A stretch of DNA of 43,386 nt from Nemertoderma westbladi (taxonomy: Eukaryota; Animalia; Xenacoelomorpha), in NCBI GenBank assembly GCA_032718475.1, contig JAUCBJ010007643.1, positions 1-43,386 on the forward strand, given 5' to 3'. Both the position numbers and the translations under genes were made by a program. Within the stretch, counting starts at the first letter, position 1, and each line of letters begins with the position of its first letter. The notes beneath the pieces were generated by a model. It did no database searches, had not been told where the DNA came from, and worked only from the letters and a program-made list of their open reading frames with translations. Shown here piece after piece: positions 4,733 to 42,996 of the stretch.

Positions 4733-5539
4733 AAGACCTGGGATTCACACCTCAAGAACGCAGAAGTAGTAGATGATATCCGGCAACTACAGTGACAGAC
4801 ACCGACTTTGCGGATGACATCGCCCTGCTCTCTAATACCCTAGCAGATGCACAGCTTCTACTAAATAAAGTGGAGATGGCTGCAAAGGAGGTTGGATTGC
4901 ATATAAATGCTACAAAGACCGAATTCATGACCTTTAATGTTGATGGAAACTTGACAACCATTGATAATAATCAACTAGGGAAGGTCGATGACTTCCAGTA
5001 CCTTGGATCATGGATAGAGAGTAGCAAAAAGGACATAGAAGTTAGGAAAGCAAAGGCTTGGGTAGCTCTATCAAAAATGGATACCATCTGGAAATCAGAT
5101 CTCTCCAGGCACCTGGAGACTAAGTTCTTTCTAGCCACTTTGGGGGGTGAGACCTGGACACTGGCTAAATCACTTGAACAACGAATTGATGGTTGCTACA
5201 CAAGACTACTAAGGGCAGCCCTAAACATCAGCTGGAGACAACACATGACAAACGCCGAGCTTTATGGTACAATACCACCTGTATCAACCACCCTCCGTGA
5301 ACGCAGATTAAGATTCAGGGGCACTGCTGGCAAAGTAAAGACGAGGTCATACCAGATCTACTTTTCTGGCAACCAACTCATGGAAAGCGTAGTCGTGGAC
5401 GACCGGCCATAACATATATAGATCAACTTGAAAGGGATACTGAACTTAGGAGAAACGAAATTGCGACAACTATGGAGAATCGGAAAGCCTGGAAGGATCT
5501 CATTTCCACTGTCCGAGTTCGCTCGACCTAGTAGTAGTA
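4733..5539 (+). mobile_element. 5'-truncated RTE-clade LINE with (TAG)n tail and ~39-bp target-site duplication
   Basis: RT motifs DTDFADDIALL, FQYLGS, IDGCYTRLLRAALNISW, RRLRF; TAGTAGTAG tail at 5529-5537; flanking direct repeat GAGTGGTGTTGTAATTGGTAGACTGAATTTGTAAACTTG at 4694-4732 and 5544-5582. Confidence 0.92.
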
Positions 5540-7675: not shown

Positions 7676-8197
7676 GCGTTTGGATTCCTGGGTTTTTAAT
7701 CCGCTGTTACAAAGATTAGGTACCACGCCCACCTCTAAATAGTCTTTTTATGCCTCTGCTCTATGCGTCCTGTACTATGTCCTATGTCTTTATGATGTTC
7801 CCAAGCTATTAGTTTTTCTGCATATCTTGTATCTTGGATAATGTCCTCTTTCTAAGTTTAGCAGCCTCGACTCAATAGTCGTTCTTGCCTTACTTCGATA
7901 TCATCACGTGAGTGGAATCTATCTTGATTGAAATACTCATCGATAAATCTAGATTTTGGATCCTATATTTATAACCTACCTGTTCTTCCTTGACTATCGC
8001 GATAGCTACATATTTTTCTTCCTGTTGATCTAACTCTGTTTGTTCAACAGCCCCCTCTATAGGATGTAAATCAAATCATCCACCTAAAAGGCGTTGATTT
8101 TCCCTAAGGACCACTTCCACTAACTCACTTATCATTTATTTTGTCGAATTAAGAGAAGGATTATCTACTCCGAGTAAAAAATTACAATAGGGGTATC

Positions 8198-9382: not shown

Positions 9383-9390
9383 CCGCTCCC
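9383..9390 (-). promoter_or_regulatory. Polypurine tract
   Basis: GGGAGCGG on the element strand directly abutting the 3' LTR. Confidence 0.7.
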
Positions 9391-9453
9391 AGAAAATGGG
9401 ATTTAAGTCTATAAAATATAACAAATCACAGTTTCTAAAATATAAAAATACTC

Positions 9454-10981
9454 TCAGTTAGTCTTTCTTACGAGGACGGCGTTTACGCAGTTTTTTGAGG
9501 CTAGCAAGAGTCCTTTTCTCTTTGGGGCGAGCCACTTTACTAGGAGGGCTATAAATCCTGGGTGAAGGGTGCAATATGATTGCATCAGAAGGTGTAGGAT
9601 TATGGTCGGGGTATCCGCCGTTTCGATATGCTTCTCCTCGAGCTGATTTTCCTCCGCTCGTAGCTGGATACGTTCATCCAAAAACTCTCGCAGAGAATAG
9701 GGTCGTCCAAGTGCGATAACTTCGTAGAGATTCTGGATTTCCCGATCGAACTGAGATAAATTTACTTTGTTTACCGCTTGGACTTGCTAGTGCAATTTAC
9801 ATTTATCTGAACAAGCGTAAGTTCCTTTTCTGATCTTTGTAGAATAGCGTCAAACTCATTTGGTACAACGCTCTCCGCCACTTTGGTGACAGGTTATATC
9901 GTGTTAAGCCGGGACGATGGTAAGGGTTAAACGGCGATATTAAATGTCCGCTTCCCAATCCGGCTAGGTAGGATGGGCTAATATCTAGGAAGCCCACAAC
10001 CGGGGTGCCACCGACTAATTGTTCAGGTAACACTAGATCTTTGAGCAGTGAGTACAGCTCGGGAGGATCCGTCATACTAATAGGATCAAGAGTCTGAGGT
10101 CTCACTAGGGAATGAGGAGGTCTGATCGAGTATTCCGAAACTCTGATCATTGGTTTATTTAAGGATCGTCTGAGTCGAACGAGCGTAGGTGATACATCGA
10201 ACAAGTTTCGCTCGAAACTCCCGTAAATATAGCGAGTAAAACCGTGTTTAAAGCAACGTCTCCGCGGATGTTTATGTCTTTTCGTTTGTTGGTTGGGTCT
10301 TGGGCATTCATTGCAATAATACCTAAGACGCACGTCTTGTAGGGGAAACGCGGGTGATCGTTCTCCAGTTTTACAATATTCCTCCATCTGTTCGAAGCTA
10401 TCCGGTACAACAGGTAGCGGTCGATCGGCGGTAAGATACATCATAGTGGAATAGAGCCGTTTGAGTTCTACCATGCGGTCATGATGTATACCTTGAGGAT
10501 ATCGAGTTTCTAGATTCTGTTGACTGGTAATATCGAGATAGGTTTCTCTCAAGAATTCCAGGTATTTGGTGAAGTCGCTGCGTTTATCCGGCTCTTCAAC
10601 ATCTGCACTTTCGAGTCAGTTTCTAATAGAATTTTCGTGTTCGAGTCTCAGTTTATCGTTCCGCTTCCGCTGGGTATGATATTTAAATAAAACCATTTCC
10701 CTTTTGGTGTCTATATCGTTCGTATCGTGTAGGTCGATAGGATGACCAGTAGTTAAGAAGTCCATATACGTACCATTACGATGTGTATAGCGAGCGGTGA
10801 ATTTTCTACAGTCCAACCCACGCGCAAGTTGCTCCCGGGACATTGGCGGTTAGATATAACGACCATCGTCCTCCGTAGTAGTTGGACCAGCGTCGCCGCA
10901 TATCAAGCTATCAACAAACGCTTGTAAAGGTAGAGTATATCGCTCCCTGATACCAAGATCATCTTCTATCAACTCAATCAT
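9454..10981 (-). pseudogene. Extra ORF (~500 codons, unknown function) between pol and the 3' LTR
   Basis: ATG at 10981; track ORFs 10616-10843 and 9803-10552 share one frame, interrupted by TAA (10850) and TGA (10616). A frameshift near 9830 and a TAG at 9787 would join ORF 9454-9681. Confidence 0.75.
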
Positions 10982-11814
10982 ATCTGCTATATAAGTTTAT
11001 CCATATTATAATGAGTTTATATTTAGGCGAGCGGGCGTCGCTGCCTACCCCTCTCTGCCCCCGGACAGTGCGAGATCCTCAGCGCTGGTGTACTTTCGCC
11101 GATGTGCCTATCGCCAACGTCGTAGCTGCACAACGACTACAACAACCAGCACAAGTCACTCCACCGTCCGTCCCAAAGGCTTAGATATACTTCAGGTTCT
11201 TACTGGAGAGTTAGGGCTACTTTCACAATTGCGACTCGCTACTGTAAACACACCTTAGTAGTAACATTCACCTACAAACGCACAAATTCCACGTAACTGT
11301 CACAAATGGTACACATTCTATCACACATTCGGGTCATTTGTCCGTTAGTCAAGTGCCTTCCAGAATGTCACGTTGTTATTATGTATCCTTGGATATTAGC
11401 AGTGCGCTATTTATTCCCTATGCTATTCAATGGGGCAAGCTTTCTATTGTTCTTTTAACTCACTTCCAATTCTAGCGTGGTTGTTGCCATGGTGACATTA
11501 TGGAAAGCTAGCGGTAGAATTAGGGTAATTCTCATGCATACAGATCTGGGATGCTATTTAATAGTAATTCTTTAATGGTCAATATCCCCTTTATACATGA
11601 TTTTATGAATTTTATCGGCTATTGACTATATATTGGAGATTCTCGCACACTAATATACTTAATAGAGTGAATCTCCGCTCCCATGATCTATTAATTAATG
11701 GAATTTTAGGAATGTTATAAATTGTATAAAAATGACAATTTATTAAATTCATTAAAATATATGAATTTAAATTTATTCCCGTAAATTTTATTATTTAATG
11801 TTAAATAGACACAA

Positions 11815-12110
11815 TTTTATTCCAGAACGTGTCTGGGGACTGGGATCCTTGATTCTAGGAATTTTGACCTTTTAAGAGTATCGGTAAGTGCTACGATATC
11901 TTAATCGACTAGAATTTTAAAGGATCTAAAATTTCGACAGATTTTATAAATATTAATAATTAATATTTAGGATGGGCACCAGTTTATTCCAGAACTTGTC
12001 TGGGGACGTTAACCACTGATTCTAGAATTTGTCTTTCAAGTATATCGGTGGGTGCCGCGATATCTTAATCGACTAGAATTACAGATGGTCAAAGGGTTTA
12101 ACAGATTTAT
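11815..12110. repeat. Diverged two-copy ~165-bp direct repeat in the pol-extra ORF spacer
   Basis: TTTATTCCAGAAC(G/T)TGTCTGGGGAC...CGATATCTTAATCGACTAGAATT at ~11817 and ~11983. Confidence 0.85.
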
Positions 12111-12625
12111 TTTGCGTTATACGCTACTGTTAAAAGGACATCACGCTACTATATGTATTATTTAATATACGGTATGAGAGCAATATCGCACGAAGCAATG
12201 TCAGTGAGAAGAGGCAAGTCGTTTCCAAGGTCTACCCAGAGCTTGGTTTAGCCGAGACACGAGGATCTGAATTTTGCATTCCTAATACTCTGCTTACCAA
12301 TAATACTTAAATATAGTAGGAGCTTTATTGTACTTTAATAAGTACGGATATTTCATCTTACTGTAGTCACGTATTTATAATATGATACGGACAGTAAGGA
12401 AAGAGAAAAAGAATTATTTCTCGCCGTCGCACTAAATATAATATATAAGTAATTAAGTAATAAACACTAATATATTGCACTAATCTACTAAATAATCGCT
12501 AAAATATCATTCTACTAAATAAAATTAAAGAAAACGATTATAATAAAATTACATAATAATACATACATAAATATAAAATAATAAGAATATAAAATAATAT
12601 GGTCACACACCCACTCCAAACGCTG

Positions 12626-15600
12626 TTACGTTGGGGAGTCCCTAGATGTTTGTTGGATTAGGGAGGTGGTCGTGGGAAGAGTATCTTGCCTTCCATAGTT
12701 TCCGGAGAGTTCTCTGTCCCTTTCCAGTAAACATAAACGACCAACTGGGCGATTGAGCTGCTGTGTCTCGAAGACAATTCCCGGTTTCTTGAAGTTACGT
12801 CGCATGACGACGAGTTCTACTGATCGCACTAAACCGTCATCCGAGATGTGAGTCTCGATGATACGACCTGTCTGCCACCGCTTACGTGGAAGATCTACAT
12901 CCACAATAAGAACCATGTCTCCAGCGCTGACGTTTTCTTGCTGCGCAAACCACTTAGTTCGAAGTTGTAGCGTGGCCAGATAATGTTTTTCGAAATGGTC
13001 AGCGAAACGACGGGATAACAACTGCATGAGTTGCCAAGTTTGCCGGCAGTATTCGTCTCCGTCTGTGATTTCCGATTATGGGAGCATGGCTACAGGCTTC
13101 TTCAGTAGGAAATGCGCGGGTGTTAGCGCTTCCAGGGAATCGGGACTCGATGAGACTGGCATAAGCGGTCTCTCGTTGAGATAGGCGGCGATTTCCTCCA
13201 TTAACGTCCGCAAAAGTTCGTCGGTGAGATACGCGCGGCAAGGCACTATAAAGTGAAATGCGGTCTTCACACTTCTTATTAATCTCTCCCAACTTCATCC
13301 CCACCAAGGGGCTTCGGCGGCGTTGAAGGTCCAGCTAGACGCTGTTACTCGTAGCTGATTGTCCACCTGTCTTTGGTTCCAATCTTTGACGTAAGCTTTG
13401 ATTTCATTGTTGGCACCAATGAAGTTTGTTCCCTTATCAGATCTCATCGTGTTACTAGTGCCAAAGCGAGCGATCTGTCGTCGTAAGCTTAATAGAAAGC
13501 TGTTGGTAGATAAATCGTTCACCATATCGAGATGGATAGCTCTACAAGTCATACAAACAAAGATGACATACCATCTCTTGACTATAGTCCTAGCACGATA
13601 TACTTCAATAGGGCCAAATAAATCTACACCGGTATTAGTAAAGGGTGGTTCATAGAAGCTTACTCTTTCCCTAGGTAATTCTGCCTCTCTCTGTGTTAAA
13701 GGCCTACTGAATGCTTTCCTACAGGGTATGCAGTTCCTAAGAACTTGGTTCAGAGCTCTACGGGGTTTATAAAAATAATAGCGAGTTCGAATTTCGCTAA
13801 GAACTCATTCTCTACCAGCATGATAAAGTTTGCTGTGAACATCTACAATCATCTTGACTTGTATTTCAAGATTTCTAATGAGTATGGGGAACTTAGTGTC
13901 AAAGGATAATGGAGCATTCGTTAATCTTCCTCCAATACGTATCAACCCATCTATCATTGTGCTAGAGAAACGATCCCTTAAGCGCATCTGTGGATTTCTC
14001 AACAACAGGAAATACTTATCGGAATCCTCATAGCATTGCAGGAGTCTCAGCATCTGCTTGTTGGTTTCTTCATGCTCCTGATAACTGATCTTCTCCTTCA
14101 GAAACCTATCGGATATCTTATATTTGGGAAGATCTTTAACAACATGGACCTGCACCGATGTTAGTGGAGTGGTATCACTTTTGGTCTTCATTCCGGAGTA
14201 GTGATGGTGAAAACATCTTTTTAAATATGTAACGGCCTTACAGAGCCGATTCCAGAAACTGTAGTGATGTATCGCTCTCTGCAGGAGAGGTGAGAGTCCT
14301 TGCGAGACGTCTGGTATTCCAGATTTCCAATCCTTCTCATGGATTTCCACAACAAGTTTATTTGTGGCTGTGGGTTTCTGATCCAAAGTGTCGTCTCCGG
14401 AAGTATGTAGTACAGACAGATCTACCATGGGTTTGAATAACTTCGATTTACTCGCCCGAGTTTTAGGTTTGACTTTCTCCGCTCCCTTGGCCTGTCTAAT
14501 CTCTGCTGTAGTAAGATGAGGAGGCCATTCTTCTTCTTCTTTGTAGAGGAAGTTGGGTCCACCTAACCAGTCTGGAGTATCTACCTTTTCTTGTGGAGTT
14601 GCTCCCCTGGAGGCGATGTCTGCTGGATTAATCGTTCCGGGGCAATGTCTCCATTGATCCATCGTTGTGCGACTGAGTATAATGGCTACTCTGTTGGTAA
14701 CGAAGACGCTGAATTGACAGACTTCATTAGTTATATACTCCAACACGAGTAAAGCATCGGTCCAATAGACAGTTTTCTCCAGTGGATAGTCGATCTGTTC
14801 TGTTACATTCCGGCCGATGGCTGTAGCGTATAGAGCCGCTTTTAACTCTGCTCGAGGAACTTTCAACTTATTGTTTATCAATGCCTTAGAGGTAACCAAG
14901 GCGACTTTGATTCCGTCCAGAGTTTCCACCCTTAGGTAGGCTACTATACCTATTCCCATATCGCTGGCGTCTCCAAACACATGAAGTTGATAGGAATACG
15001 TAGGGAGAACATGACCAAAATATGAATGGGAAATTATAAAGTTCTCGATGGCTGGTAGAGAATCTTCCCATTTCATCCACTTCTTTAATAATTCTTCCCT
15101 TAAGTGGATCGTCCCATGAGTGGTTTTCAAGCCACATTTGTTGTACTAAACTCCGAGCAATCAATATAACTGGGCTAATAAATCCCAATGGATCGAAATA
15201 AGTGCTCAGGATACTTAAACAAATCCGTTTAGTCCGAACTGGATTATCTCGCTGTTTTAGTTGGAAAAACAGGATATCTCTTTCTGTGTCCCATTTCAAA
15301 CCAAGGGTCTTAGTTTCTGGGAGATCATCTTTTATTAGATCTAGGTCTTTCGCTCCTCGATCTTCTACCGGGATCGACTCCAGAAACTCACGGGAGTTGC
15401 TGGTGAATTTAGTTAATCGAAATCCACCTCTTTTTAAGCACTCTACCGTTCCTTTAGCGACGTCAATGGCTTCTTCGACTGATGGAAGGGACTTTAGATT
15501 ATCGTCCATGTATATATCCCGCTTGATGTTGTCAATCACCTCTTTAGAGAAGGCTTCTCGAGAAGGCTTCATCTGCAGTGGTGCGCACCACTGAACAGGC

Positions 15601-20736: not shown

Positions 20737-20870
20737 GTTGATTTGCACAGTTGAATGCCTACTGCTATGTTACAGTTAAAGCAAATCTAGTAATTCAGTA
20801 TCAACTGATAGCCTAGTAATTAATTACCGATATCGTCACTAAATGTAACTTGATATATATATAATATATT

Positions 20871-21237
20871 AGAATACCGGTATGCTTATAGTATATATAT
20901 AAGTATTATTACAGACTAGGTTTGTCACAGAATACCGGTATATAATTCCAGCACAAATATATATAAATATATAATAGGCCTATCGTGGATACCGGTATGC
21001 AGTTTACACTTATAGTATATATAAGTATAATTATTAACTAGAATTAATTACAGAATACCGGTATAATTTCAGCCTAAATCTATAAATATATAATAGGCCT
21101 CTCGTGAATACCGGTATACAGCTTACACTTATAGTATATATAAGTATAATTATTAACTAGAATTAATTACAGAATACCGGTATAATTTCAGCCTAAATCT
21201 GTAAATATATAATAGGCCTATCGTGAATACCGGTATA
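20871..21237. repeat. ~119-bp tandem repeat (three copies) with seven ATACCGGTAT palindromes in the element's 5' leader
   Basis: Palindromes start at 20874, 20932, 20989, 21055, 21108, 21174 and 21227. Confidence 0.92.
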
Positions 21238-22190
21238 TCAATTATTTTTAGAATAATTGAATTTCTGAAATTTTAGGGGTTACTTGGTTACTTTGCTTTA
21301 CTCTATTACCGTTATTTGAGCAGTAGTCCAACTGATATTTAGACCTAATTGATGTATGGCAGGCCTACTATTTATAAATCGTTTGAGTTGATTTATAATA
21401 TATCTATACCCGTTAAAATGGGTTTTTGTCAATATTTGAAATAAATGTTATTATTTCTGGGGGAGTCACTACACAGAAGCTGTGCGCTCTCAGTGAAGTG
21501 CTACTTGTTGGACACTAAAACAAATAATTCTAATTTACCTAAGTTACTTAATACTACAAATTACGTACAATTCGGGGTGAGATTACAATCTCTAAATAAA
21601 CACAAAAATTACAAGTACGAATTTTTAGGGTATTTTTACAAGAAGTCTACTAACCAGCCAAACAAAGGGTTAGAATATCTGGTTATTACAACGGACAGGT
21701 TACTACGGTATTTGAAAATAATAAGTAGTAGTAAATATACTGCGTTGTCCAGATAGAAAAATACCACCGTCTGACGACTTATAGCCGTGGCGCTATAAGT
21801 ACTACGTTATGTATCACGGAGTGTTCCTACCTAGAAGTTAATTACCGCGGTCTACCAGAACCAACGTGCCTATTAACCACTTTACAACACAAATATACTG
21901 CCTACACACTAATCACCTTCGGAAAGCACTGTACACTAAACCCTAAATTAGTTACAAGTACTTATATAACAAATAATCAATAGTTAAAAATACTTGAACA
22001 GCCAAAAGAACCACGGTATCTGCTGGAGTGACCGGGGCACAAAATCACCAGTCTTTACCTACGCCAAGCAGCCCTGATGTAGTACCGGGGTTAGTTTAAC
22101 TATAACGGTATATATAACAAGCACAATTACTGTAGGAATAAACTTGGGGATATGAATGTTGCGAATAATCGCATAAACTCTGAATAATAA

Positions 22191-22760
22191 ATATTACGCT
22201 ACGCGTACAGACTACTCAAACAAAATGCAGACCAAATACTGACAGACTACTATCAAGCCCAAACAAACTACGGTATATGCAGACTCCGAAATGGTTAGTT
22301 AGTATGCGTTCTAACCGAGTAGTACGACTTATTCTTTCGAGGGGGTTTACCTCACAGCTCTGGAAGCCCCTACGTTCCCAACTGGCACTTTATCGGACAT
22401 ACACTCTACACACACCGAAATCTCTCAAGATCTAACAACAGCCAGACAAAATCCAGCCTACAAATTATCTAAATAAGAAATATTACGCTACCCGTACAAA
22501 CTACACAAACCAAGTACAGACCAAACGCTGGCAGACTACTATCAAGCCTAAATAAACTACAGTATATGCAGACTCCGAAATGGTTAGTTAGTATGCGTTC
22601 TAACCCAGTAGTACGACTTATTCTTTCGAGGGGGTTCACCTCACAGCACTGGCAGCCCCTACTTTCCTAACTAGTACTTTTTCGGACATACGCTCTACAC
22701 ACACTACAGTCCCTTCAGACTTAACAACAGTCAGACAACAGTCCAGCCTACAAATTGTCT
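22191..22760. repeat. Two-copy 289-bp tandem repeat in the element's 5' leader
   Basis: ATATTACGCTAC starts at 22191 and 22480; the central ~100 bp is nearly identical and the flanks are more diverged. Confidence 0.92.
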
Positions 22761-23018
22761 GTACAATCTGAGCAGGCTTACACGCCTTCTGCTCAATATT
22801 AGCCTACAAATAAATAAAACTGACAGAAATAGGCCTAAGTAAAATCCCAATAAAAACCAGGCGTCCCCGATTAATTATTAAGACCTACTGGTATATAATA
22901 ATCAAAATCGAATAATACTGCTGTACCTGTACTGCTGTAGGTACTAGTCCGGGTGGTTAGGTAGTCAGGCCTACTGGGTACCGGTTGGCCGGTACTTCAG
23001 CTTTATTGCCTACTGCAA

Positions 23019-23039
23019 TACAGAAGCTATATCTGTTAT
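23019..23039 (-). promoter_or_regulatory. Non-canonical primer-binding site complementary to the element's own LTR
   Basis: Element strand reads ATAACAGATATAGCTTCTGTA (no TGG); it forms an inverted repeat with 23779-23799. Confidence 0.7.
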
Positions 23040-24219
23040 TGTTCGCGCTTTCAGACCTTTAGCAGTTTAACCTGCTAAATTGGGATGTCTCTTAGATGAT
23101 AGATCGTCTTTAGCCTATGACAAGTATTTGATACACTACATTAGCCGAAGCCAGTCTATGCGTGATCATTCACCCGCTGGATATACCCGGGAGACTGGAT
23201 TCAGAAGCCTAACCGTATTGCGGGGTAGGCCTACTGTATTATTCGACTGATCGTAATATATAATCTCTGACAAATATTATTCACTTTCGGGAAATATTAA
23301 CAGTTCCTTTAGGACGTGGCGCTCTAAATATGTAAACAGAGTTATGACTTAAACTAGACACAATGGGATGGCTATAGATTCACGTATATGGCGCATTCTT
23401 TAGGAGATGCTTTGTTATCAGTCACAATCATACACAATACTGCACAATGCTGCACACTGATCTGCCGACCTTCACTAATTTTAGTCACATATAAAGAGAA
23501 CAACAGACAATACATGTAGGGCCTATAAAATAGCATTAGATTCACTTCAAACCACTTAATGTAAGTCGCAATCGTTATATGTAACCGGTCTCTCTAACCT
23601 TTAGTATATCAAGAAGATTGGGGTGTCTGATTATTTATCAGTGTTCCAAATATAATATTCCATCAACAAATATAATGAATAACCGACAGTAAATAGCAGT
23701 ACAAAGTTTAAGGTGTGAATGGTTATGAATGCAGTGAGTTTCGTTATGATTTGGTATGATTAGTTAAGGTTCGGATTGATAACAGATATACGTTCTATAA
23801 TTAAGCCCACCAATGTTGGGCTAAAGACCGAAACACGGAGGTTCCAAAGCCGGTGTTGTAGGCTGTGGACAAAATCACATACTGACTCAACTCCACGAGT
23901 TTCTATATACAATCTCTAACTCAGAGGCAAAAAACGCTCTGATTGGTCGACCGAACAAAGAAGGAACAGGGAACAACGAAAAGCTCCAGTGTACAGCACC
24001 AGCTGTTAGCCGTCGTCACGGCAGCTACACTGTTTCAAGAGGATCCGGCGCATTGCGTCACAGAACTGCCAATCATGTCCGCCAAAGCACACATACAGAA
24101 GAAATGGCTCCCATATCCTCCAAAACACCAGTACAGCAAGGACACGGCCCCTTATGCCTGTTAAACCAACTACAACTTTACGGGGAAAACAACCGGCCAA
24201 TTCCGCAAAAGCCTTTACA
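23040..24219 (-). repeat. 5' LTR (1180 bp)
   Basis: TGTAAAGG...CGCGAACA on the element strand; direct repeat of 8198-9382. Confidence 0.97.
23880..23949 (-). promoter_or_regulatory. Putative LTR promoter (CCAAT, TATA-like, Inr)
   Basis: Element strand: CCAATCAG (~23946), TATATAG (23909), TCAGT initiator (A at 23883). Confidence 0.5.
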
Positions 24220-26269
24220 GTATCTAATCTACCGTACATCGTTATAGTTGAACTTAATGTACTAACTCTACTGTACCAATACTGCTTGACACTGCTACAC
24301 ACTTCAACTGGCAGTAGTTAGTTACCTTGTCGTGATGGTTGTTCGGCTCGGTTCGATTTCCAATTCCAACTGTCTCTAAGTTTATTAAAAACTTGTCTAT
24401 TTCCAATCAACCTATGAAACCAGAGTTGATGACGCACCCGCCATATCAAAGCATAATTAGTTAATTTTCGCTTTTTTTCTCTCAGACCTTAACATTCCTA
24501 CACGTCCATGATAAATTGAAATGGCCAGATTTCAGATAACGCACTGCAAAAACCGTTATGTTAAAAAAAAATGTTAAGTTCCCTTCTGCTCCTCTGGCTG
24601 GAAACGACACGACAGCTTCGTATATTCCCTAGCTGTCTGATCCTTGGTGGAAGGAGATTCACATCTGGCTGTTAACACATATGTTTTTATCTGTGTAGTC
24701 TGATTCCTATTTCCTAGTGCCGAGGCACCAGGTACTAACTACAGTGTATATTTTTGATGTCGTATAAGCTGCGGCCTGATACCCAGGGCAGGTCTAGACT
24801 CCAGTAGATTATACAGTACTAATCAATTCATTTTTAGTTGACTTGGCCTGACTTAGCTCAGCTCACTTTTCTATACAGTTGCCATTTCAGATACCTTACC
24901 CATTTTCCATTTAAGCCTTATCCATTTTTAGTTGATAAATAATTCAATTTAAATTTCTGTCTGGCAGCGTGGCAGGTAAAACTGTTTGATATGATTTGAT
25001 TGGATAACATGGCTTAGCCCATGTCCCACATGATACACAATATTTTTGAAGTTGAATATTTTGACCAGAGAATGATGAGTGTAACTTCCCTCTCGGCCTC
25101 TCTCTGTGACAAAGTTGCCTGCGAAGTTCTAGACTTCCGTGACGAACTTCTAAACAAATTATATAAAAACTGTATAACCAAAAGATTAAGGAAAATTTAG
25201 AGATTTGAGAGTTCCACAGTTTGGTCAATGGTTCCACAAATCGGGATTTTAGTTAAGGGGGGGGGGGGGGGGGGGTCACTAATTAACTAAACATTTTCAT
25301 CCCATTATTTAATTTAGGAGATGGATTTTATCCAAAGTAATTGAAGTTTTGCACACTTGTATACAATAATGTGTAAAAAAAATTTCAAAAATTTTTTTTC
25401 TAAATTTTTAATTTTAATAAATCAACATAATTTATGCAATAATTTTTTTAAATCCAAAGGCTTTTAGAGGGATGGGCATCAAGGGATGGTCATCAAGGGA
25501 CCCGGAGTTTCGACAGAGTTTCGACAGATTTCGCAATTTTTGGCCAAAAATTGCAATATTTTGTTAAATATTTCACCTATAACAAAAAAAATCAAAAAAG
25601 TGGTAAAAGGAGGTGTTAAGCATCACCCATTCATCATTCGTGCCAAATTTCACAATTTCATTCGTTCGTTTTTGGAAAAGCCCCTGTATTTTGAAATTTA
25701 AAATTTGCATTCTTCAGAAAACGCATTTAAAGTTTATCGTTACTTACTTAGTTGTTCAATGACAAAACCAACAACAATAGTTTAACAATAAATTAACACA
25801 ATATAGTGGAGCACAATTCTAAATGTTATCTGTTACTAAAGATTTGATTTAATTTTTGATTTGATATATTTTTTGATTTATACCGAGTTGGTCATACACA
25901 TTAACACTTGCATTAAATTAAACTGACAGTTAAGCATTTTATAATTTAAAAATTTGTATTAAAGGAAGGGATTTAGTTTTTGAGTGTTGATAGTGCACTG
26001 TTAGTAGTTGACAGTAGCCGAAGCTAGTTTTGTCAACTGCTATCAACGGCCAGTTCGGGGGGGGGGGGGGGGGGGGTGGTGGTGGTGGTGGTGGTGGTGG
26101 TGGTGTGGTTAGCCTATCCAACCAGCAACAGCAACGTTATGCAGACTGTATCGTTAGGGTATTTTAATTAATTAATTAAAATATATTAATATTTAAAATA
26201 TATAATATCGGATATTATATTTGAATTAATTCAAATGTTAGAATTCACACAACCCAGCTGAAAATTTTA

Positions 26270-27461: not shown

Positions 27462-28184
27462 CCGGGTGTTCCATAATGATTGCCCCCCCCTCCACCGGGC
27501 ATCGGCCAAAACTGCCAGACATGCACTTTAGTGTAATATCTCGAAAGATAATTTAATTCTGAGCTTGCATGCAAAAATTTAGGGTCCAATACAAAAGTAT
27601 AAAAATTTTATAGACTATTCTTTAAACCTATCTTATTTTTCAATATTTTTGATTTAATCACAATTAAAAAAATATAATTTATCCAGCGTTAGTCATTAGC
27701 TTTGCCTTTCCCCTGTTTCCCCTTTGCAACACGGGGAGCTCCTCGATAGTGGCAAAGGATGTTGGCCTTTAAAAGGGCCGTTTTGGTTTGAGTTCAGTTT
27801 GATTATGCCACAGAATCACGACCCTCTCTAAAAGTAACTTCTCTGATCCTGTCAACCATACGTTTTTCTTCAGAATCATCGAAGATTGCACTGGAACTTG
27901 TCATTTTAATTACTTCTTGGTAGGCCTAATTCCGAAAAATTACCAAAGAAACACTAATACCGGTAACTGAATACTGTAATATATTGCAATACAGCAAAAG
28001 TCAGGCAGTAATAATTGTTTATACAGGGCTGCAAATCTGATCACTAACGCTGGATAAGTTATATTTTTTTAATTGTGATTAAATAAAAAATATTGAAAAG
28101 TGAGATAGGTTTGAAGAATGGCCTACAAAATCGTTATACTTTTGTAAAGGACCCTAAATTTTTGCAAGCAAGCTCAGAATTAAT
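27462..28184. mobile_element. Tc1/mariner-like non-autonomous element, right end truncated
   Basis: TA-CCGGGTG left terminus; ~140-bp inverted repeats at 27553-27693 and 28043-28184. Confidence 0.65.
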
Positions 28185-28715: not shown

Positions 28716-29025
28716 AACATGTGAATGACGTATAGCCCTGGTTCAATCCCCGCCCGGTGCCGTGCGTCTTCATTTTTTCCATTTCTGAACCAAACCTTAA
28801 TATTACATCATTGTAAAAAAAGAACAATACATCAAACAATCATATAAATATTGAGCAACAACATAACATATAGGATTACCCCTAAAGCTTTGCAAATTAT
28901 TTCCAAGGCGGTCCTTTATGTATCTGATATTTCTTTATATTATATTTTTCAATAATAATATATACCACTCAGTCACTTACAAGTATATAAATATACTATT
29001 TCACAAATAGCATAAAACTAATGTA

Positions 29026-29958
29026 CACCATGACCCGTAATATAGTTTCATTTTCTGATGACACGGACCCCCCCCCCCCCCAGATTTTTCTACAAATATT
29101 TATAATATTGCTTGAAATTTGAAATACCACTAGTTCCACTCACCGTGGTTGACCCCATGAAGCCGGAATTTTGGATTTTGCCTTTAAATTTTTTTTATAA
29201 GCGTTTTAAAGTCTTTTTTTTCTTTAAAGTTTTTTGTATTTTGCTTAATCGCACCCTCCGTATCGTGGCCATTCTTCACATTAGTCGTAATTTCTTCATA
29301 TCATTAAAAAGCTTGCGTTGCAAGGATTCCAAACATGTAACAATATCTGAATTTCGTTGAGAAACAACTGAGATATAGGCGTTCAAAGATTGCAAGAATT
29401 ATCGTTCTCTGCAGGCCATTTATTCTATTTAATAATACACAAAATTCTAGAATGTGTTATTTATTTTATAAGTTGGTTGGCAACAGCGGTATTCCTATCC
29501 AATATATATATTGCATAGCTATTCATACTTAAACAAAATGTTCCAGAACATCGTGTATTTATTAAATGGAATAAATGGCCTTCAGCGAACGATACTTCTT
29601 GCAATCTTTGAACACATAAGTTCAGTTGTTTCTCAACGACATTCAGATATTGTTACATATTTGGAATCCTTGGAACGCAAGCTTTTTAATGATATGAAAA
29701 AATTACGACTAATGTGAAGAATGGCCACGATACGGAGGGTGCGATTTCGCAAAAGACACTTTTTTAAAACGCTTATAAAAAAAATTTATAGGCAAAATCG
29801 AAAATTCCGGCTTCGGGGTCATCGACGGTGAGTGGAACTAGTGGTGTTTCAAATATTCAAGCAATATGATAAAGATTTGTAGAAAAATCTGGGGGGGGGG
29901 GGGGGGGGTGGGGGGGTCCGTGTCATCCGAAAATGACACTATATTACGGGACATGGTG
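29026..29958. mobile_element. Foldback MITE with ~430-bp terminal inverted repeats and TA duplication (Tc1/mariner type)
   Basis: TA-CACCATG...CATGGTG-TA; the arms pair over ~29026-29452 and ~29540-29958. Confidence 0.9.
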
Positions 29959-30382
29959 TATATACGTACGGTACTTATTCATATTACTATGTACACGTCA
30001 TTTTATAATATATAATACGTAACTTTAGTATATAGTAAATGGTTAATAAACTATTAACTTACTGAAGCACTACTATTGTATTATTATTTTTTACACTGCA
30101 CACAGAGGTAATACTTAACTGCAGATTTAAAGAAATGTTGATTATCTGGGTGTTTTTTTATTTCATTTAGAGAGAGCGTTCCAATTTTTTATTCTGTTAA
30201 AAAAGAAAGTATCAGATTATATGGATTTACAATTCGGCAAGTAAAAGTTTGAAGCACTAGCTCTGATGTAGGATTTGTTGCTTAGATGTTTAGCGATAAT
30301 AGAAACCCGTTGAAATTATGTGTCATTTATATCTCATTGGATATAACTGAAGTCATATATAATTGTATATTTCTGTTATCAG

Positions 30383-30504
30383 GTCCCTTCGTACGTGGAA
30401 ATCAACGCTTATAGTGAATCTGTGTGTCAGTGACTTCTTATTTGGATTGAGCTTCGTTCAAAAGTTATTGGAATTTGTTCATCCACATACGGCATGGTCA
30501 CCAC
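30383..30504 (+). CDS. GPCR exon 2 (ICL1 and TM2)
   Basis: Acceptor TTATCAG; SLRTWKSTLIVNLCVSDFLFGLSF... has the NLxxxD TM2 motif; phase matches exon 1; donor CAC|GTAAGT (phase 1). Confidence 0.9.
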
Positions 30505-31385
30505 GTAAGTAGAGTCAGTAGGCATACCCGCATACAGCATGGTCACCACGTAAGTAGAGTCAGTAACCATACCCGCATACAGCCTGGTCACCTGGTAAGT
30601 AGAGTCAGTAGGAATACCCGCATACAGCCTGGTCACCTGGTAAGTAGAGTCAGTAGCCATACCCACATACAGCCTGGTCACCTGGTAAGGTGAATCAGTA
30701 GCCATACTCGCATACAGCATGGTCGTCTGGTAAGTAGAGTCAGTAGGAATACCCGCATACAGCCTGGTCACCTGGTAAGTAGAGTCAGTAGGCATACCCG
30801 CATACAGCATGGTCACCACGTAAGTAGAGTCAGTAACCATACCCGCATACAGCCTGGTCACCTGGTAAGTAGAGTCAGTAGGAATACCCGCATACAGCCT
30901 GGTCACCTGGTAAGTAGAGTCAGTAGCCATACCCACATACAGCCTGGTCACCTGGTAAGGTGAATCAGTAGCCATACTCGCATACAGCATGGTCGTCTGG
31001 TAAGTAGAGTCAGTAGGAATACCCGCATACAGCCTGGTCACCTGGTAAGTAGAGTCAGTAGCCATACCCACATACAGCCTGGTCACCTGGTAAGGTGAAT
31101 CAGTAGCCATACTCGCATACAGCATGGTCGTCTGGTAAGGTGAGTCAGTAGGCATACCCGCATACATCACGGTCACCATGTAAGTAGAGTCAATAGCCAT
31201 ACCCGCATACAGCATGGTCTCCATTTAAGTAGAGTCAGTAGCCATACCCGCATACATCATGGTCACCACGTAAGTAGAGTCAGTAGCCATACCCGCATAC
31301 GGCATGGTCACCACTTATATAGAGTCATTAGCCCCTATATACAGCATTGTCACCACGTAAGTAGACGTAGAGTAAGTAGCCATGT
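30483..31385. repeat. 45-bp minisatellite (~20 copies) spanning the exon 2/intron 2 junction
   Basis: Unit approximates ATACCCGCATACAGCMTGGTCACCWSGTAAGTAGAGTCAGTAGCC; variant units recur at 270- and 135-bp periods. Confidence 0.97.
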
Positions 31386-31596
31386 AAAATTGTAGCATAG
31401 CTATATATATTAGTTTCGTAGTTCGTTTCATAGTCGTTTCATATTTTCATATCAAAATTAAATTTACATTATAGTAGACTCGATGAACAATGTTCTATAA
31501 TATATCATATACATACAGTAGCAGCGATATACAATCAATAAATCATTTATCGATAGTTCAGATTGCATTCGACGCAATCAAATGTCATCCTTCTCC

Positions 31597-32510: not shown

Positions 32511-32597
32511 TATATAGACCAACTTGAAAGGGAAGTCTGGATGGATCTCATTTCTGCTGACAGAGCTCGCTCGACCTAGTACTAGTAGTAGTAGTGG
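32511..32597 (+). mobile_element. Internally deleted 3' end of the first RTE family
   Basis: TATATAGACCAACTTGAAAGGGA...GGATCTCATTTC...CGCTCGACCTAGT followed by (TAG)n matches 5416-5539. Confidence 0.85.
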
Positions 32598-32668
32598 TAC
32601 TACAATTTACCTAGAACCTTTTTTTTTATTTTAATATTCGAAATACACTCTATTTTCTACATTTACAG

Positions 32669-33076
32669 GGCAACTGCTACAATTGTATGGATCACAGCAA
32701 TAGTATTATGCTCTCCATTCTTTATTTTTTCTGGTCCGTGGAATGTACCCGGCTATCAAATATGCAATGTGGGATATCTTCCAAACGGATTTTCACCTAT
32801 AATGAATATAGCAGCGACCAACATGAGTTACTGCAATATCGGAGGGAAAACACAATTTGAAGTAGCGTTTCCTATTTTTAAAATTACGATATTGTATTTA
32901 ATACCCACGTGTGTGATGCTAATTTTGTACGGAAATATTCTGCGGACTTTATCATTTAGTCTGAATAACCCCATGCTCGGTATCATACAACAATCTTCTT
33001 TAACCAATAAGAATAATACTCGCCCCATCCCACAATCGAGTATCATGGCTTCCATTTTCTCTACAACTTATAAAAG
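32669..33076 (+). CDS. GPCR exon 4 (TM4, ECL2, TM5, start of ICL3)
   Basis: Acceptor TTTACAG; IVWITAIVLCSPFF (TM4 W...P) and YLIPTCVMLILYGNI (TM5); donor AG|GTGAGT. Confidence 0.93.
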
Positions 33077-33619
33077 GTGAGTATTATTAATAAACTTACA
33101 GACACTTATTAAACTTGTGTATAGAGGCACATTAATGAGGGATACAAACATTAATTAGAGACACAGATATATATGGTCGCAAGAATTAATGAGAGACACA
33201 AACATTAGTTAGGGAGAAATATATGGATGTGGGTTACAAATTAATGAGAGACACGTCAATATTATTAATGAGTGGTTTTAAATATTAATAAGGGGTACAA
33301 GGTATAACTTATTATACTGTAAGACTCAGCACCATATTAACCGGTATTAGAACTATTTTTATTGCAAACTAATTTTTATTCACATGGTAATGTGAAGCAG
33401 TACATATATATACATTCTTTTAATTTTCTTCAATAATACACTCAAAGGTTCTTCACTCAGGGGATACTTGGGAATGAACCATTGTTACGGTCTATTACGA
33501 ATTATTTATGTTTTGTTTGTATAGGCTAATTAATACATCATAGATAATAATATGAAAAAATATATTGGAAATAGTGCAATGGCCAACATTTTTAGGATAC
33601 AATTTAAGATGTATTGGGT

Positions 33620-35830
33620 CTGTTTGGAGCTATGTGCATCATACTTGACACAAAGAACCCGATGTAGCATTCTTGTGTATGAGCGAGAGCCATCCATCAC
33701 CTGCAGTGAAAACCCAGCATGGACTCCCATATATAAGTACTGGTTCTACTCCTGATTTAAATAATTGTTCCTTATAATTCCAATGTATTCTATGTGACCT
33801 CAAAATCCGTGACAACCCATTCAAAGCTGCCTATATGCCAACCATATTTAATGAATAACCCCAACCCCATACACATATTCAAAGGTATTCATCTGAATTC
33901 CACATCCATGATCGCAAACGGCAGAAGTTAACCATAGTCTCAAGCATACCACCATCAGTTGTATTGACTAGGAAAGGCTCTTATTAAAATCTAATAGCAT
34001 TCCTTTAGTGGAAACTTCATAGAGATCTACAGAAATGTATGCCACATTTGACTCCGAGAGTTTGCTTGGTCCAAAGCATTTTGAATGTTCAAAATATTGG
34101 TTTTATAATTTAAGTCAATTAAATATTAAAGGGTGAATGTTGTCCATATATATTGACATTTTCATGTCCCTCCTTGCTCCTCTGTAGGCTTTTTTTTTGT
34201 TTTTGTTTATTAGCGTTTGTTTATGGAAGCGATGCCTTCTACCTCGGGTTGACCATCTGTGAACGTCGCCTGACTGGTTGTTCTATGCCTACTACTACTA
34301 CTACTAGGATCGGCATGCTGCATTGCAGCTGCATTTTTAAGAATGCTGTGCCGGCTTATCGACAAAATTGCACCGCCACAACTCCCTATCACCCATGACA
34401 TTTGCTAGATCATCCGCATCTTCAAGGCCAGTGTCCTTTAAGATGCGTCTCAAGAAAGTCATGGGCTGTCCACCATGCTTACTCACTCCATAAGGCTGCC
34501 AAAGTACAAGATTATGCACTGGCTGGTCCTCACGGCGAAAGCAATGTCCTGCAAAGCGGAGGCGATTTTGTTCTAGTGTCAAGCTTGGGGGAACCAATGA
34601 GACACCTCCAATGTTATATAGTGTCTGGTTGGAGATGTGTGCATTGAACTTGACACAATGAACCCGGTGTAGCATTCTTGTGAATGTGCCATCCAGAGAT
34701 TTGGTGTCCTCAGCAGTTAGAGCCCAGCATGGACTCCCATAGAGGAGTACTGAAACTACTGCTGCTCTAAATAACCGGACCTTAAGTTTCCGATTAATTC
34801 TCGGTGACTTCCAAATCCTGGAAAGCCTATTCAAGGCTGCCCATGCCTTTCCCTTACGTTTTCGAAGGTCCTCACCTGACTTCCGGATCCAAGATCCCAG
34901 GTAACAGAAGTCATCCACATGCTCAAGCATACCATCGTTTGAGCTTATGCTCATCCGATCAGAGACTTGCTGAGGACTTTCAAAGTTAACTGTCAAAATT
35001 TTGGTCTTTCTGGAGTTAATAAAAAGACCAACACTAGAAGCAGAATGTTCTAATGAGCTGAGGAGCCGTTGGGCTCCCTCTAGTGATTCTGAGAGTACTC
35101 CTAAGTCATCAGCAAAGTCTGGATCAGTTAGGTACTTGGCAGGATTTCCTCGACTTCTGGAGCCAGTAGGTGGAGTTATCATCACCCCATCTTCTTTATG
35201 ATGATCTAATGACATGCGTAGAACATAGTCAACAACAATTATGAACAAGAATGGTGCAAGTGTGTCTCCCTGGAGGACACTGTTCTATGCCTGGTTTCTT
35301 TTACTGCTGTCATCTTTGACTGGGAGTTGCTGGTAGAGAGTCCTCTCATTTGGTTCAAGTCGGGCACAGTGGCCACTTGACTCACCCTGGTCACTTCCAA
35401 ATTATTAATAACAAAGGCGGTCAATTGGGTAAGGGTATTGAAAGGTCCACACAGTTTCCCCTTACTCTTTTCGAATATGTTGTTTGTATGTATCAATTCA
35501 CATTCTTCCATTAGGTCTAAGAGTAAGCACCAATTTCTTTTCGAACTGGTGTTATAGTTGTAACCCTGTAAGTCTTATGGCCCATTTGCACATTCAGGTT
35601 ACCAGCAATGACTTTCAAATTGTGTTTCGGAATGTCATTTATAAGTCCATTCAGATCTTTATAAAACTTGACTGCTTGTTCTGGCTCTTTTAAATCGAAT
35701 TTACAGATTCGATTTTGTTTAGGGTCTGAGGTGCAAATGGGCTTAGCAAAATTATTACTCCACCAATTGATGCATTTGCCGAATTTCTTTCCGTTTTGCT
35801 TTTTACAAATGTCCATCAATTGTCGTGACA
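33620..35830 (-). mobile_element. Old degraded RTE LINE (endonuclease and RT remnants) split by a younger RTE insertion
   Basis: Endonuclease-like FYKDLNGLINDIPKHNLKVIAGNLNVQMG (~35575-35665) and C-terminal LFKSGVEPVLIYGSPCW / YTRMLHRVLCVKY (~33630-33765); ends approximate. Confidence 0.75.
34291..35280 (-). mobile_element. Young 5'-truncated RTE LINE with (TAG)n tail and 12-bp target-site duplication
   Basis: Uninterrupted frame VLQGDTLAPFLFIIVVDY...DFADDL...YLGS...RLRFAGHC; TGTTCTATGCCT at 34279-34290 and 35281-35292. Confidence 0.95.
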
Positions 35831-40464: not shown

Positions 40465-40530
40465 AACAGTAACCTTCGAATTTGTTCGTTGACGTTCGAA
40501 TTTGTAAGACTCTCATTTAAGACTTGACAC

Positions 40531-41254
40531 AGACTATGCCTCACCGAGGCATAGACTATGACTCACTGAGGCATAGACTATGCCTCATTGAGGCACTGAG
40601 GCATAGACTATGCCTCACTGAGGCACTGAGGCATAGACTATGCCTCACTGAGGCATAGACTATGCCTCACTGAGGCATAGACTATGCCTCACTGAGGCAT
40701 AGACTAGGCCTCACTGAGGCATAGACTAGGTCTCACTGAGGCACTGAGGCATAGACTATGACTCACTGAGGCATAGACTATGACTCACTGAGGCATAGAC
40801 TATGCCTCACTGAGGCATAGACTATGCCTCACTGCCTCACTGAGGCACTGAGGCATAGACTATGACTCACTGAGGCATAGACTATGCCTCACTGAGGCAT
40901 AGACTAGGCCTCACTGAGGCATAGACTAGGCCTCACTGAGGCACTGAGGCATAGACTATGCCTCACTGAGGCACTGAGGCATAGACTATGCCTCACTGGG
41001 GCACTGAGGCATAGACTATGACTCATTGAGGCATAGACTATGCCTCACTGGGGCATAGACTATGCCTCACTGAGGCATAGACTATGCCTCACTGAGGCAC
41101 TGAGGCATAGACTATGACTCACTGAGGCATAGAATATGCCTCACTGAGGCATAGAATATGCCTCACTGAGGCATAGAATATGCCTCACTGAGGCATAGAC
41201 TATGCCTCACTGAGGCATAGACTATGCCTCACTGAGGCATAGACTATGCCTCAC
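40531..41254. repeat. 22-bp palindromic satellite (~30 units)
   Basis: Unit GAGGCATAG-A-CTATGCCTC-ACT, with occasional extra GAGGCACT. Confidence 0.98.
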
Positions 41255-41654
41255 CATGGATGGGCTTTACCACTGTACTCGCATCTGCTGTCTCATTGGC
41301 TGCTCGATGCCTCAGATTAAGGGTCTAAGACCTTCAAGCTGGTCATTTGCTTAGTTTTATAATTAGAAGGTCGTGAGTTCGAACCCTAGAAGAGCATTTT
41401 TCTTTTTCCTAGCTCTTGGTTAACTCTAGTATACACTCTAGCTTTGACTCTCCCGCCGGCTATAGTTATAGTATGCAACCTTGGGAGTTAATGTGAGTAA
41501 AGACCAAGAGATTAGACTTCAGGCTCCCTCTATTGGTTCATTCTTCTTAACTTTATATAATAACTCAACCCGTATTTAAAGTTTTGAAAATTATGACTTA
41601 GTCGACTAATTTTCCAAAGTATATTATAAAAACATATAATTTCTTGAATAAATA

Positions 41655-41831: not shown

Positions 41832-42884
41832 TCAATAGCGTCGTCCTGCGCGGGCATTTACTGAACGAGAGTTTTTTATCATAGGTCTTCGAAAATTAGT
41901 AAAAGCTGGTTGATTTACTTTACTTTCATCTTCCTCGTTACCCAACTGTTTCTTAATTTTATTCAATTGTTCATTAATTTTCAGTAATTTACTTTTATTT
42001 CCCAGAACCTGTCTTAATATCTCTTCTCTATTTTCCTCATTTTCTTCCATTTGTTTAATAAATTTCCGCATTTGATTTTTGTTTCCTAATATTTGTCTCA
42101 ATATCTCTTCTTTATTTTCATCATTCTCTTCTAAATGTTTAATAAATTTCTGTAATTTAATTTTACTTCCTAGAACTTGGGTCAATGTCGCCTCTTTATT
42201 TTCTTCATTTTCCTTCAAATGTTTAATAATTTTCCGCAATTGATTCTTATTTCCAAGTAATTGCCTCTTTATTTCCTCATTATCATCATTTTCATCCTCT
42301 TCTCCACTTTCCTGATCTTCACTTTCTTCACCCTCTTTCTGACCTTCACTTTCTTCATCCTCTTCCCCGCCTTCACTTTCTTCATCGTCTTCCTGTTCTT
42401 CACTTTCTTCATCCTCTTCCTGTTCTTCACTTTCTTCATTCTCTTCCTGACCTTCGCTATCTTCACCCTCTTCTTGACCTTCACTTTCTTCATCATCATC
42501 CTGATCTTCACTTTCTTCGTTCTCAACCTCACTCTCTTCAACTTCATCCTGACCCTCACTATTTTCATTCTCCATCTCATCATCCTCTTCTTCTCCATCT
42601 TTCTCACTCAAATTTTCCTCATTTTCTAGGGGTAACTGTTTTTGTATCCCTTTCAAAATATTCATAACTTTATGAAATTTACTTTCCATTGTCTGTTTTA
42701 TATTTAATATATCACGCTCATCTCTCTTTTTCTTTTCATCTTCACTAAAAATATCTTCGGATTTTTTAAATTTTTTTGGTAATGGAGCCATTAGTTTTTC
42801 CTTTCCATGTGTTTCCATATGACGAGATAAATTGTCTTGTCTCATTTCTTTATTACAGACCAAACAAGTTTCATGTCTATGCAT
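41832..42884 (-). CDS. 350-aa protein: single N-terminal C2H2 zinc finger, basic patch, acidic 9-aa repeats, four 28-aa helical repeats
   Basis: Intact ATG-to-stop frame; CLVC-x12-HMETH; PKKFKK; EESEGQEE-type repeats; NKEEILRQILGNKNQMRKFIKQMEENEE-type units. Confidence 0.8.
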   Translation of the reverse strand: MHRHETCLVCNKEMRQDNLSRHMETHGKEKLMAPLPKKFKKSEDIFSEDEKKKRDERDILNIKQTMESKFHKVMNILKGIQKQLPLENEENLSEKDGEEEDDEMENENSEGQDEVEESEVENEESEDQDDDEESEGQEEGEDSEGQEENEESEEQEEDEESEEQEDDEESEGGEEDEESEGQKEGEESEDQESGEEDENDDNEEIKRQLLGNKNQLRKIIKHLKENEENKEATLTQVLGSKIKLQKFIKHLEENDENKEEILRQILGNKNQMRKFIKQMEENEENREEILRQVLGNKSKLLKINEQLNKIKKQLGNEEDESKVNQPAFTNFRRPMIKNSRSVNARAGRRY

Positions 42885-42996
42885 TATATAGCAATGTCAA
42901 TTGAAAATATTGAATTTTAGCTAAATGATTTTACAAAATTTTAAATAAATTAAACTTTTATGAAAATAAATAAAACTTTTTAATATAAAACTTAGA

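Follow-up and report, generated by a model that had tools for sequence, protein, structure and literature searches.

Our analysis suggests that a BEL/Pao retrotransposon in the genome of Nemertoderma westbladi probably primes its minus-strand DNA with a piece of its own LTR RNA rather than with a host tRNA, a reading based on the sequence and on analogy with known self-priming elements. The element lies in a stretch of 43,386 nucleotides (contig JAUCBJ010007643.1 of assembly GCA_032718475.1), hereafter called the window. With somewhat less assurance, we also favour the view that it is an intron-less derivative within an animal branch of BEL/Pao elements that does without tRNA priming, and in most members of which the primer would be built by the spliceosome.

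The element is 16 kb long, is read from the minus strand and is bounded by 1180-bp LTRs and a 5-bp target duplication. Its main parts, in window positions, are the following:

24220-24224 and 8193-8197, minus strand: target-site duplication GATAC, on both flanks
24219-23040, minus strand: 5' LTR, 1180 bp, TG...CA
20769-12626, minus strand: gag-pol region with eight listed open reading frames, disrupted by stops and frame changes
9390-9383, minus strand: polypurine tract, directly before the 3' LTR
about 9382-8198, minus strand: 3' LTR, in which the first dinucleotide is TA, not TG

The two LTRs are 98.4% identical, with 15 substitutions and 5 gap columns between them. The domains follow one another in the order DUF1759, a weak zinc knuckle and protease, RT (YMDD), Peptidase_A17 (the RNase H region), a weak integrase zinc domain and DUF5641; the Pfam families Asp_protease_2 and Integrase_H2C2 are matched weakly, and the best homologs of the element's pol contain PF05380. 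We assign the element to BEL/Pao because of DUF1759, Peptidase_A17 and DUF5641, together with the weak protease, zinc-knuckle and integrase-zinc matches, and the PR-RT-RH-IN domain order, TG...CA LTRs, polypurine tract and short target duplication expected of the group are likewise present. By eye, what we take to be the acidic motifs of RT and RNase H are legible in the disrupted frames. The RT is at most 48% identical to any sequence found, and in a quick tree of 96 rows it forms a long branch (1.49) without supported placement among its relatives.

In the 2.3-kb leader (20770-23039) a 289-bp unit is present twice (22179-22760) and a 119-bp unit about three times (20853-21237). A further 3.2 kb between the integrase and the 3' LTR (9390-12626, minus strand) contains a 270-aa open frame (9803-10615) and one of 110 aa, for which we found no Pfam family and no Atlas look-alike (for the 270-aa frame, none at a score of at least 0.9). 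The same region contains the purine tract once more, at 11682, as well as a repeat of 164 bp (12108-11782), and a G-rich tract stands at 12617, immediately past the integrase stop.

The features on which the self-priming reading turns are located in the 5' LTR and directly behind it, with one copy in the 3' LTR:

23950-23881, minus strand: promoter-like motifs, namely CCAAT (23946), TATA-like (23909) and Inr-like (23885-23881), all of them consensus matches only
23799-23791, minus strand: 5' extension of the predicted primer duplex
23790-23779, minus strand: predicted self-primer core, with its predicted 3' end at 23779
23079-23058, minus strand: predicted 8-bp hairpin near the end of U5
23039-23028, minus strand: predicted core of a non-tRNA primer-binding site, 12 nt, beginning at the first base past the LTR
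23027-23019, minus strand: site extension, a 2x2 loop followed by 7 bp formed with 23799-23793; by itself it is not significant
8957-8937, minus strand: second, identical copy of the primer segment, in the 3' LTR

The first bases past the LTR (23039-23028) are the perfect complement of 23790-23779, at offset 0, and the match stops at 12 nt. The original prediction had described a post-LTR duplex of 12 perfect pairs, a 2x2 loop and 7 further pairs, one of them a G-U pair favouring the sense RNA; the 21-nt duplex has precisely this form, and its energy is -20.1 kcal/mol on the sense strand vs -17.2 on the antisense strand. The accompanying observations were equally accurate: TGG is missing within 180 nt past the 5' LTR and occurs first in the leader at 181 nt, the LTR segment recurs without change in the 3' LTR, and the TATA-like and Inr-like motifs stand where they had been placed. 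From these motifs transcription is predicted to start near 23883, about 93 nt upstream of the core. AATAAA is absent from the sense strand of the LTR, which leaves nothing to place the RNA 3' end. Rfam gave no tRNA-like match in 22000-24300, and the window contains no tRNA genes. Two candidates were discarded. Neither for the LTR nor for the leader did Rfam indicate a known ribozyme or another family, the search having returned just two weak chance matches, and a 10-bp complement between 23828-23819 and 23115-23106 is by rough estimate within chance.

The probability of a few times 1e-4 that had been put forward for a chance match stands at the optimistic end of our estimates: an anchored match of at least 12 nt is found in 26 of 20,000 order-2 Markov LTRs (1.3e-3), and in the rest of the window DNA 11 positions out of roughly 54,600 have one (about 2e-4). 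Within the internal region, one of 13,650 positions attains 12. Allowing five offsets brings the chance to about half a percent. The 7-bp extension contributes little: Markov LTRs produce a 21-nt duplex as good as the true one in 7 of 400 cases, and among 19 swapped partners 4 do no worse than the true one. When 1084 nt are folded, the pair probability of the duplex is 0.001, and 3.2 kcal/mol are needed to force it. A published criterion for predicted self-primers (PMC6317226) asks for at least 10 nt of complementarity beginning 0-5 nt past the LTR, and with 12 nt at offset 0 the element qualifies. Taken alone, the 12-nt match is suggestive, not decisive.

We therefore turn to the relatives. 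The comparison comprised 98 loci, namely the best 80 of 535 confirmed metagenome loci (part of the collection) and 18 in prokaryote bins, which are mostly 36-46% identical to the element over the RT segment (38-47% for the relatives that lend the strongest support). The latter 18 BEL/Pao loci (L081-L098), several of them with both LTRs, sit in bacterial genome bins and are probably DNA of animal hosts. The end of the LTR was defined where both LTR copies run past their shared end, which was the case for 19 loci out of 98. From these we removed L002, because it belongs to the family of L003, and also L022, L048 and L072, whose ends are not clean, so that 15 remained. For each we recorded the longest perfect complement of the post-LTR site in the element's own LTR, either contiguous or across a GT...YAG intron.

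At offsets 0-3, nine of the 15 relatives attain 11 nt. Three cases at offset 4 were then noticed by eye, the range was widened to 0-4 and the controls were recomputed identically; with this setting 11 of the 15, which are not all independent in that L087/L089 and L013/L020 are related pairs, attain 11-15 nt, all across introns of 76-451 nt in their own LTRs. The pairing on whose conservation the original prediction depended is thus present in most of the readable relatives; among the controls, none of 236 swapped pairs and one of 555 shifted positions attain 11 nt. This comparison with controls supports the self-priming reading that had been proposed from the window element alone, which had missed that in most relatives the complement is located at a splice joint. 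The intron donors are GTRAG in ten of the 11 and near-consensus in L051, and the acceptors are pyrimidine-rich. The other four comprise L041 with 10 contiguous nt, L082 with 10/11, L095 with none, and L039, which has a TGG site and a self-match of only 4 nt. Among the 15 readable relatives L039 is also the only one with TGG within the first 8 nt; the other 14 lack it.

Less complete loci were treated likewise. Twelve further ones, in which the LTR start is known and all ACA ends were scanned, gave a canonical spliced match of at least 11 nt in eight (four of these being repeat families already counted), 10 nt in two and nothing in two. From 55 loci represented by the 5' region only we obtained six canonical spliced matches, repeat-derived matches in one locus, which we do not trust, and nothing in 48; many of these contigs likely begin too late to contain the LTR. 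The signature is spread over many branches of the quick tree of 96 rows.

Changes on both sides of the pairing were found twice between L087 and L089, twice between L007 and L032, and once, by eye, between the intron-less L041 and L022, the LTR end of the latter being unclear. Across groups we counted 47 both-sided, 81 unchanged and 1 broken cells, but the matches themselves set bounds to this count, which also takes in loose groups, and for this reason only the close pairs were used. Pairing beyond the core is modestly stronger than in swaps, at -7.9 kcal/mol in 20 elements vs -6.0 (rank test p = 8e-4, the comparisons not being independent). The predicted primer ends in A plus a pyrimidine in 14 of 16 relatives, as it does in the window, and lies 44-236 nt from the LTR end in the relatives vs 739 nt in the window. 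TATA-like motifs 125-139 nt before the primer end occur in 5 of 14 relatives, a weak peak that has a rival at 155-169 nt; the corresponding distance in the window is 131. A primer formed by the opening 11-12 nt of the RNA was rejected as a rule for all relatives: L007 has a TATA 31 nt before the match, but the profile over 16 relatives is mixed. In L087 and L089 an AATAAA follows immediately past the predicted primer end, so that the repeat available to the first strand transfer would be very short.

A match that begins 0-4 nt past the LTR, is 10-15 nt long, replaces TGG and changes together with its partner has the geometry of a primer. The same pairing might nevertheless be real and selected for a structural reason, such as RNA dimerisation, packaging or translation control, while another molecule acts as primer. 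We consider this unlikely, even though the pretzel fold of Tf1 was not found and the primer is predicted to end some 105 nt into the RNA, vs the first 11 nt in Tf1 (accessible text of PMC7175516): the match always falls at the place and length a primer requires, and the complement replaces TGG instead of standing beside it, the TGG-bearing L039 having just its 4-nt match.

Self-priming from the LTR remains the reading we prefer, and because the complement in most relatives exists solely across a predicted splice joint, the window element looks like an intron-less member of a splice-built system. We infer this extension of the relatives' pattern, given the long RT branch and its lack of a supported placement.

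Four of seven public runs listed were compared with the window, with depth taken as summed contig depth, not copy number. In X1 and X2 the site (23029-23036) has some 22-25% of the depth found at the LTR end, and a site like that of the window is thus common in the family. It is accordingly not a decayed oddity of the window copy. Three core variants are abundant in X1 and X2, respectively: at 23039 (position 1) with 38% and 34% of depth, at 23035 (position 5) with 37% and 42%, and at 23034 (position 6) with 70% and 81%; they are those among the site differences listed, and we read the listing as covering places far from contig ends. A single X5 contig bears all three. The variant at position 6 alone gives a G-U pair (-11.1 vs -11.8 kcal/mol), while the three together, facing an LTR segment that has not changed, would bring the duplex from -11.8 to a weaker -5.3 kcal/mol. 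They are either compensated on the LTR side or a real counter-example. The compensatory change anticipated by the original prediction is thus seen in the close pairs of relatives, but within the family no difference falls inside 23779-23799 among the 40 of 324 rows listed, which neither shows nor excludes compensation.

The boundaries of the two segments are also visible in the runs. A divergent group of four X1 contigs leaves the window sequence at 23027, right past the twelfth site base, and at five joints (X1, X2) the 43-88 nt that immediately follow the predicted primer on its 3' side are replaced, the window sequence resuming at 23778; as sequence edges, both would fit the self-priming model. 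In X1 the bin 23780-23828 forms an island with a depth of 193,791 vs 6,741 and 26,109 in the adjoining bins. X5, which we guess to be RNA, has zero coverage over 23731-23877, and we draw no inference from it. A common A-to-G variant at 23076 preserves its hairpin pair as G-U. At 23808, 23811 and 23829 the window copy disagrees with almost all of the contig depth and therefore represents a minor subfamily; with the letter that is common at 23829, the sense strand gains an Inr-like or acceptor-like motif. IMG/VR yielded no relative by single protein or alignment, and the exact 23-base junction of LTR and site is missing from the metagenome collection.

Could the primer of the window element be splice-built as well? 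Joining a donor at 23783 to an acceptor at 23072/23071 would remove a 712-nt intron, give an 11-nt match at offset 1 and leave about 30 nt to the LTR end, nearer to the 44-236 nt of the relatives than 739 nt is, and the fifth base past this acceptor would be a pairing partner for the variant that is common at 23039. We nevertheless hold such a primer to be very unlikely: the donor is not GTRAG-like, the acceptor bases lie within the 8-bp hairpin, the joint is missing among the 15 joints listed, and the unspliced match is longer (12 vs 11). Since the same 11 nt are also obtained with another acceptor, at 23598, a match of this kind is cheap.

Slightly less credible still is a primer taken from a host RNA other than a tRNA 3' end, for instance a tRNA half or another small RNA, with the LTR match incidental. 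Priming by half-tRNAs is known in Copia lineages, according to the accessible text of PMC6317226, but three abundant site variants in one family do not fit a fixed host primer, the site of each relative is wholly different and is matched by that relative's own LTR, and the Rfam result for the LTR end and leader speaks against a tRNA-derived candidate. Least probable of all is that the 12-nt match is chance or a dead relic, for which the five-offset figure, the divergence of the element from the tested relatives and its broken genes may be cited, since most relatives share the geometry and so make the prior high, a conserved LTR block ends exactly at the predicted primer end, and a similar site is widespread in the family.

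Under the self-priming reading, we propose that transcription would begin near 23883 and that folding of the RNA would pair 23790-23779 with 23039-23028. A cut after 23779, made, by analogy with Tf1, by the RNase H of the RT, would leave a 3'-OH about 105 nt into the RNA. DNA synthesis would be primed at the first base past the LTR, and the RT would copy the 739 nt of LTR behind the cut and jump to the 3' repeat. Plus-strand synthesis would later copy the last 12 or so bases of the primer back into the site, and this copying back would maintain complementarity and account for the sharp edge of the perfect core. In most relatives, where an LTR intron appears to split the primer, splicing would build it; the primer would then exist on spliced RNA only, and the intron could be inherited only if the 3' LTR copy stayed unspliced. 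Vice versa, copying an RNA with a spliced 3' LTR would produce an intron-less LTR with a ready-made primer, as might be seen in the window element, L041 and L022. The sense strand of the window's 5' LTR contains no GTRAG donor at all, which fits the intron-less state.

Several further features lie outside the element. RT fragments of other retroelements occur at 4777-5412 (plus strand) and 34337-35284 (minus strand), the second with DUF6451; long inverted repeats at 27553-28183 and 29021-29963 are likely non-autonomous DNA transposons. The stretches 30348-31457, 40498-41286 and 41832-42896 hold, in this order, a tandem array of 45-bp units, a near-palindromic array of 22-bp units that has an inverted copy at the window end, and a 354-aa open frame containing 84-bp and 27-bp repeats. 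A weak rhodopsin-family 7TM match under the curated cut-off (32595-33080, plus strand) is possibly a host gene fragment.

BEL/Pao is one of the three superfamilies of LTR retrotransposons. If our reading is true, self-priming extends to the third of them and in a different design, with an internal primer, no pretzel and, in most members, dependence on splicing, and the onset of reverse transcription would be tied to RNA processing in the nucleus. The reading would also explain why primer sites in BEL/Pao are hard to find and offer annotators a simple test, and each element would yield exact predictions for the start site, the joint, the cut position and the compensating letters.

Neither self-priming nor a splice-built primer in BEL/Pao was found in the literature covered, most subscription papers, Repbase reports and supplements being outside the search. 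Word searches of the accessible text of the main BEL/Pao surveys (PMC3118150, PMC554778, PMC8556966) found no discussion of primer sites, and self-priming of BEL/Pao is likewise unreported in the accessible portions of PMC8220671, PMC4600332, PMC3601003, PMC13524379, PMC5443660, PMC5445492 and PMC5341516.

The nearest known counterpart is the Tf1/sushi group. Tf1 and Tf2 of Schizosaccharomyces pombe, Tj1, Tf1/sushi and Tcn1 chromoviruses resemble the window element in having no tRNA site and in that some 11-12 nt past the LTR complement their own LTR transcript, a cut of which would give the primer (accessible text of PMC7175516, PMC4600332 and PMC5341516). These are Ty3/gypsy chromoviruses, whereas the window element is BEL/Pao by its domains and so not a member. 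In Tf1 the RNA's first 11 bases anneal to the site, and cleavage by RNase H follows base 11 (PMC7175516, accessible text); the primer of the window element is predicted to end about 105 nt in. The three-duplex pretzel of Tf1 (described in the accessible part of bioRxiv 10.1101/2022.12.06.519325) was not detected in the window, where the flanking duplexes are no better than shuffles (269 and 96 of 300 as good), and among relatives only 2 of 20 stood out in the same tests. For a primer formed across a predicted splice joint, as in the relatives, the accessible sources describe no counterpart in Tf1-type systems.

Self-priming has been predicted as well for Tcn1 and for Copia elements of the TAR lineage (PMC6317226, accessible text), in the latter case, the plant Ty1/copia elements Houba and Osr-1, by the very criterion under which the window element qualifies. 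TAR elements are plant Copia, and the accessible text of that study does not mention an intron-built primer.

Among viruses classified by the ICTV, the window element agrees with Belpaoviridae (genus Semotivirus) in its LTR length (0.2-1.2 kb in the family), polypurine tract, gag-PR-RT-RH-IN order and BEL/Pao Pfam domains (PMC8742986). The family description gives an 18-nt site complementary to tRNA-Arg or tRNA-Gly and a genome of 4.2-10 kb, whereas our element has no tRNA site and spans 16 kb. The same description calls replication in Belpaoviridae poorly understood (PMC8742986). Since most relatives likewise lack the tRNA site, we regard its absence as a gap in the description of the family and not as a reason to exclude the element from it.
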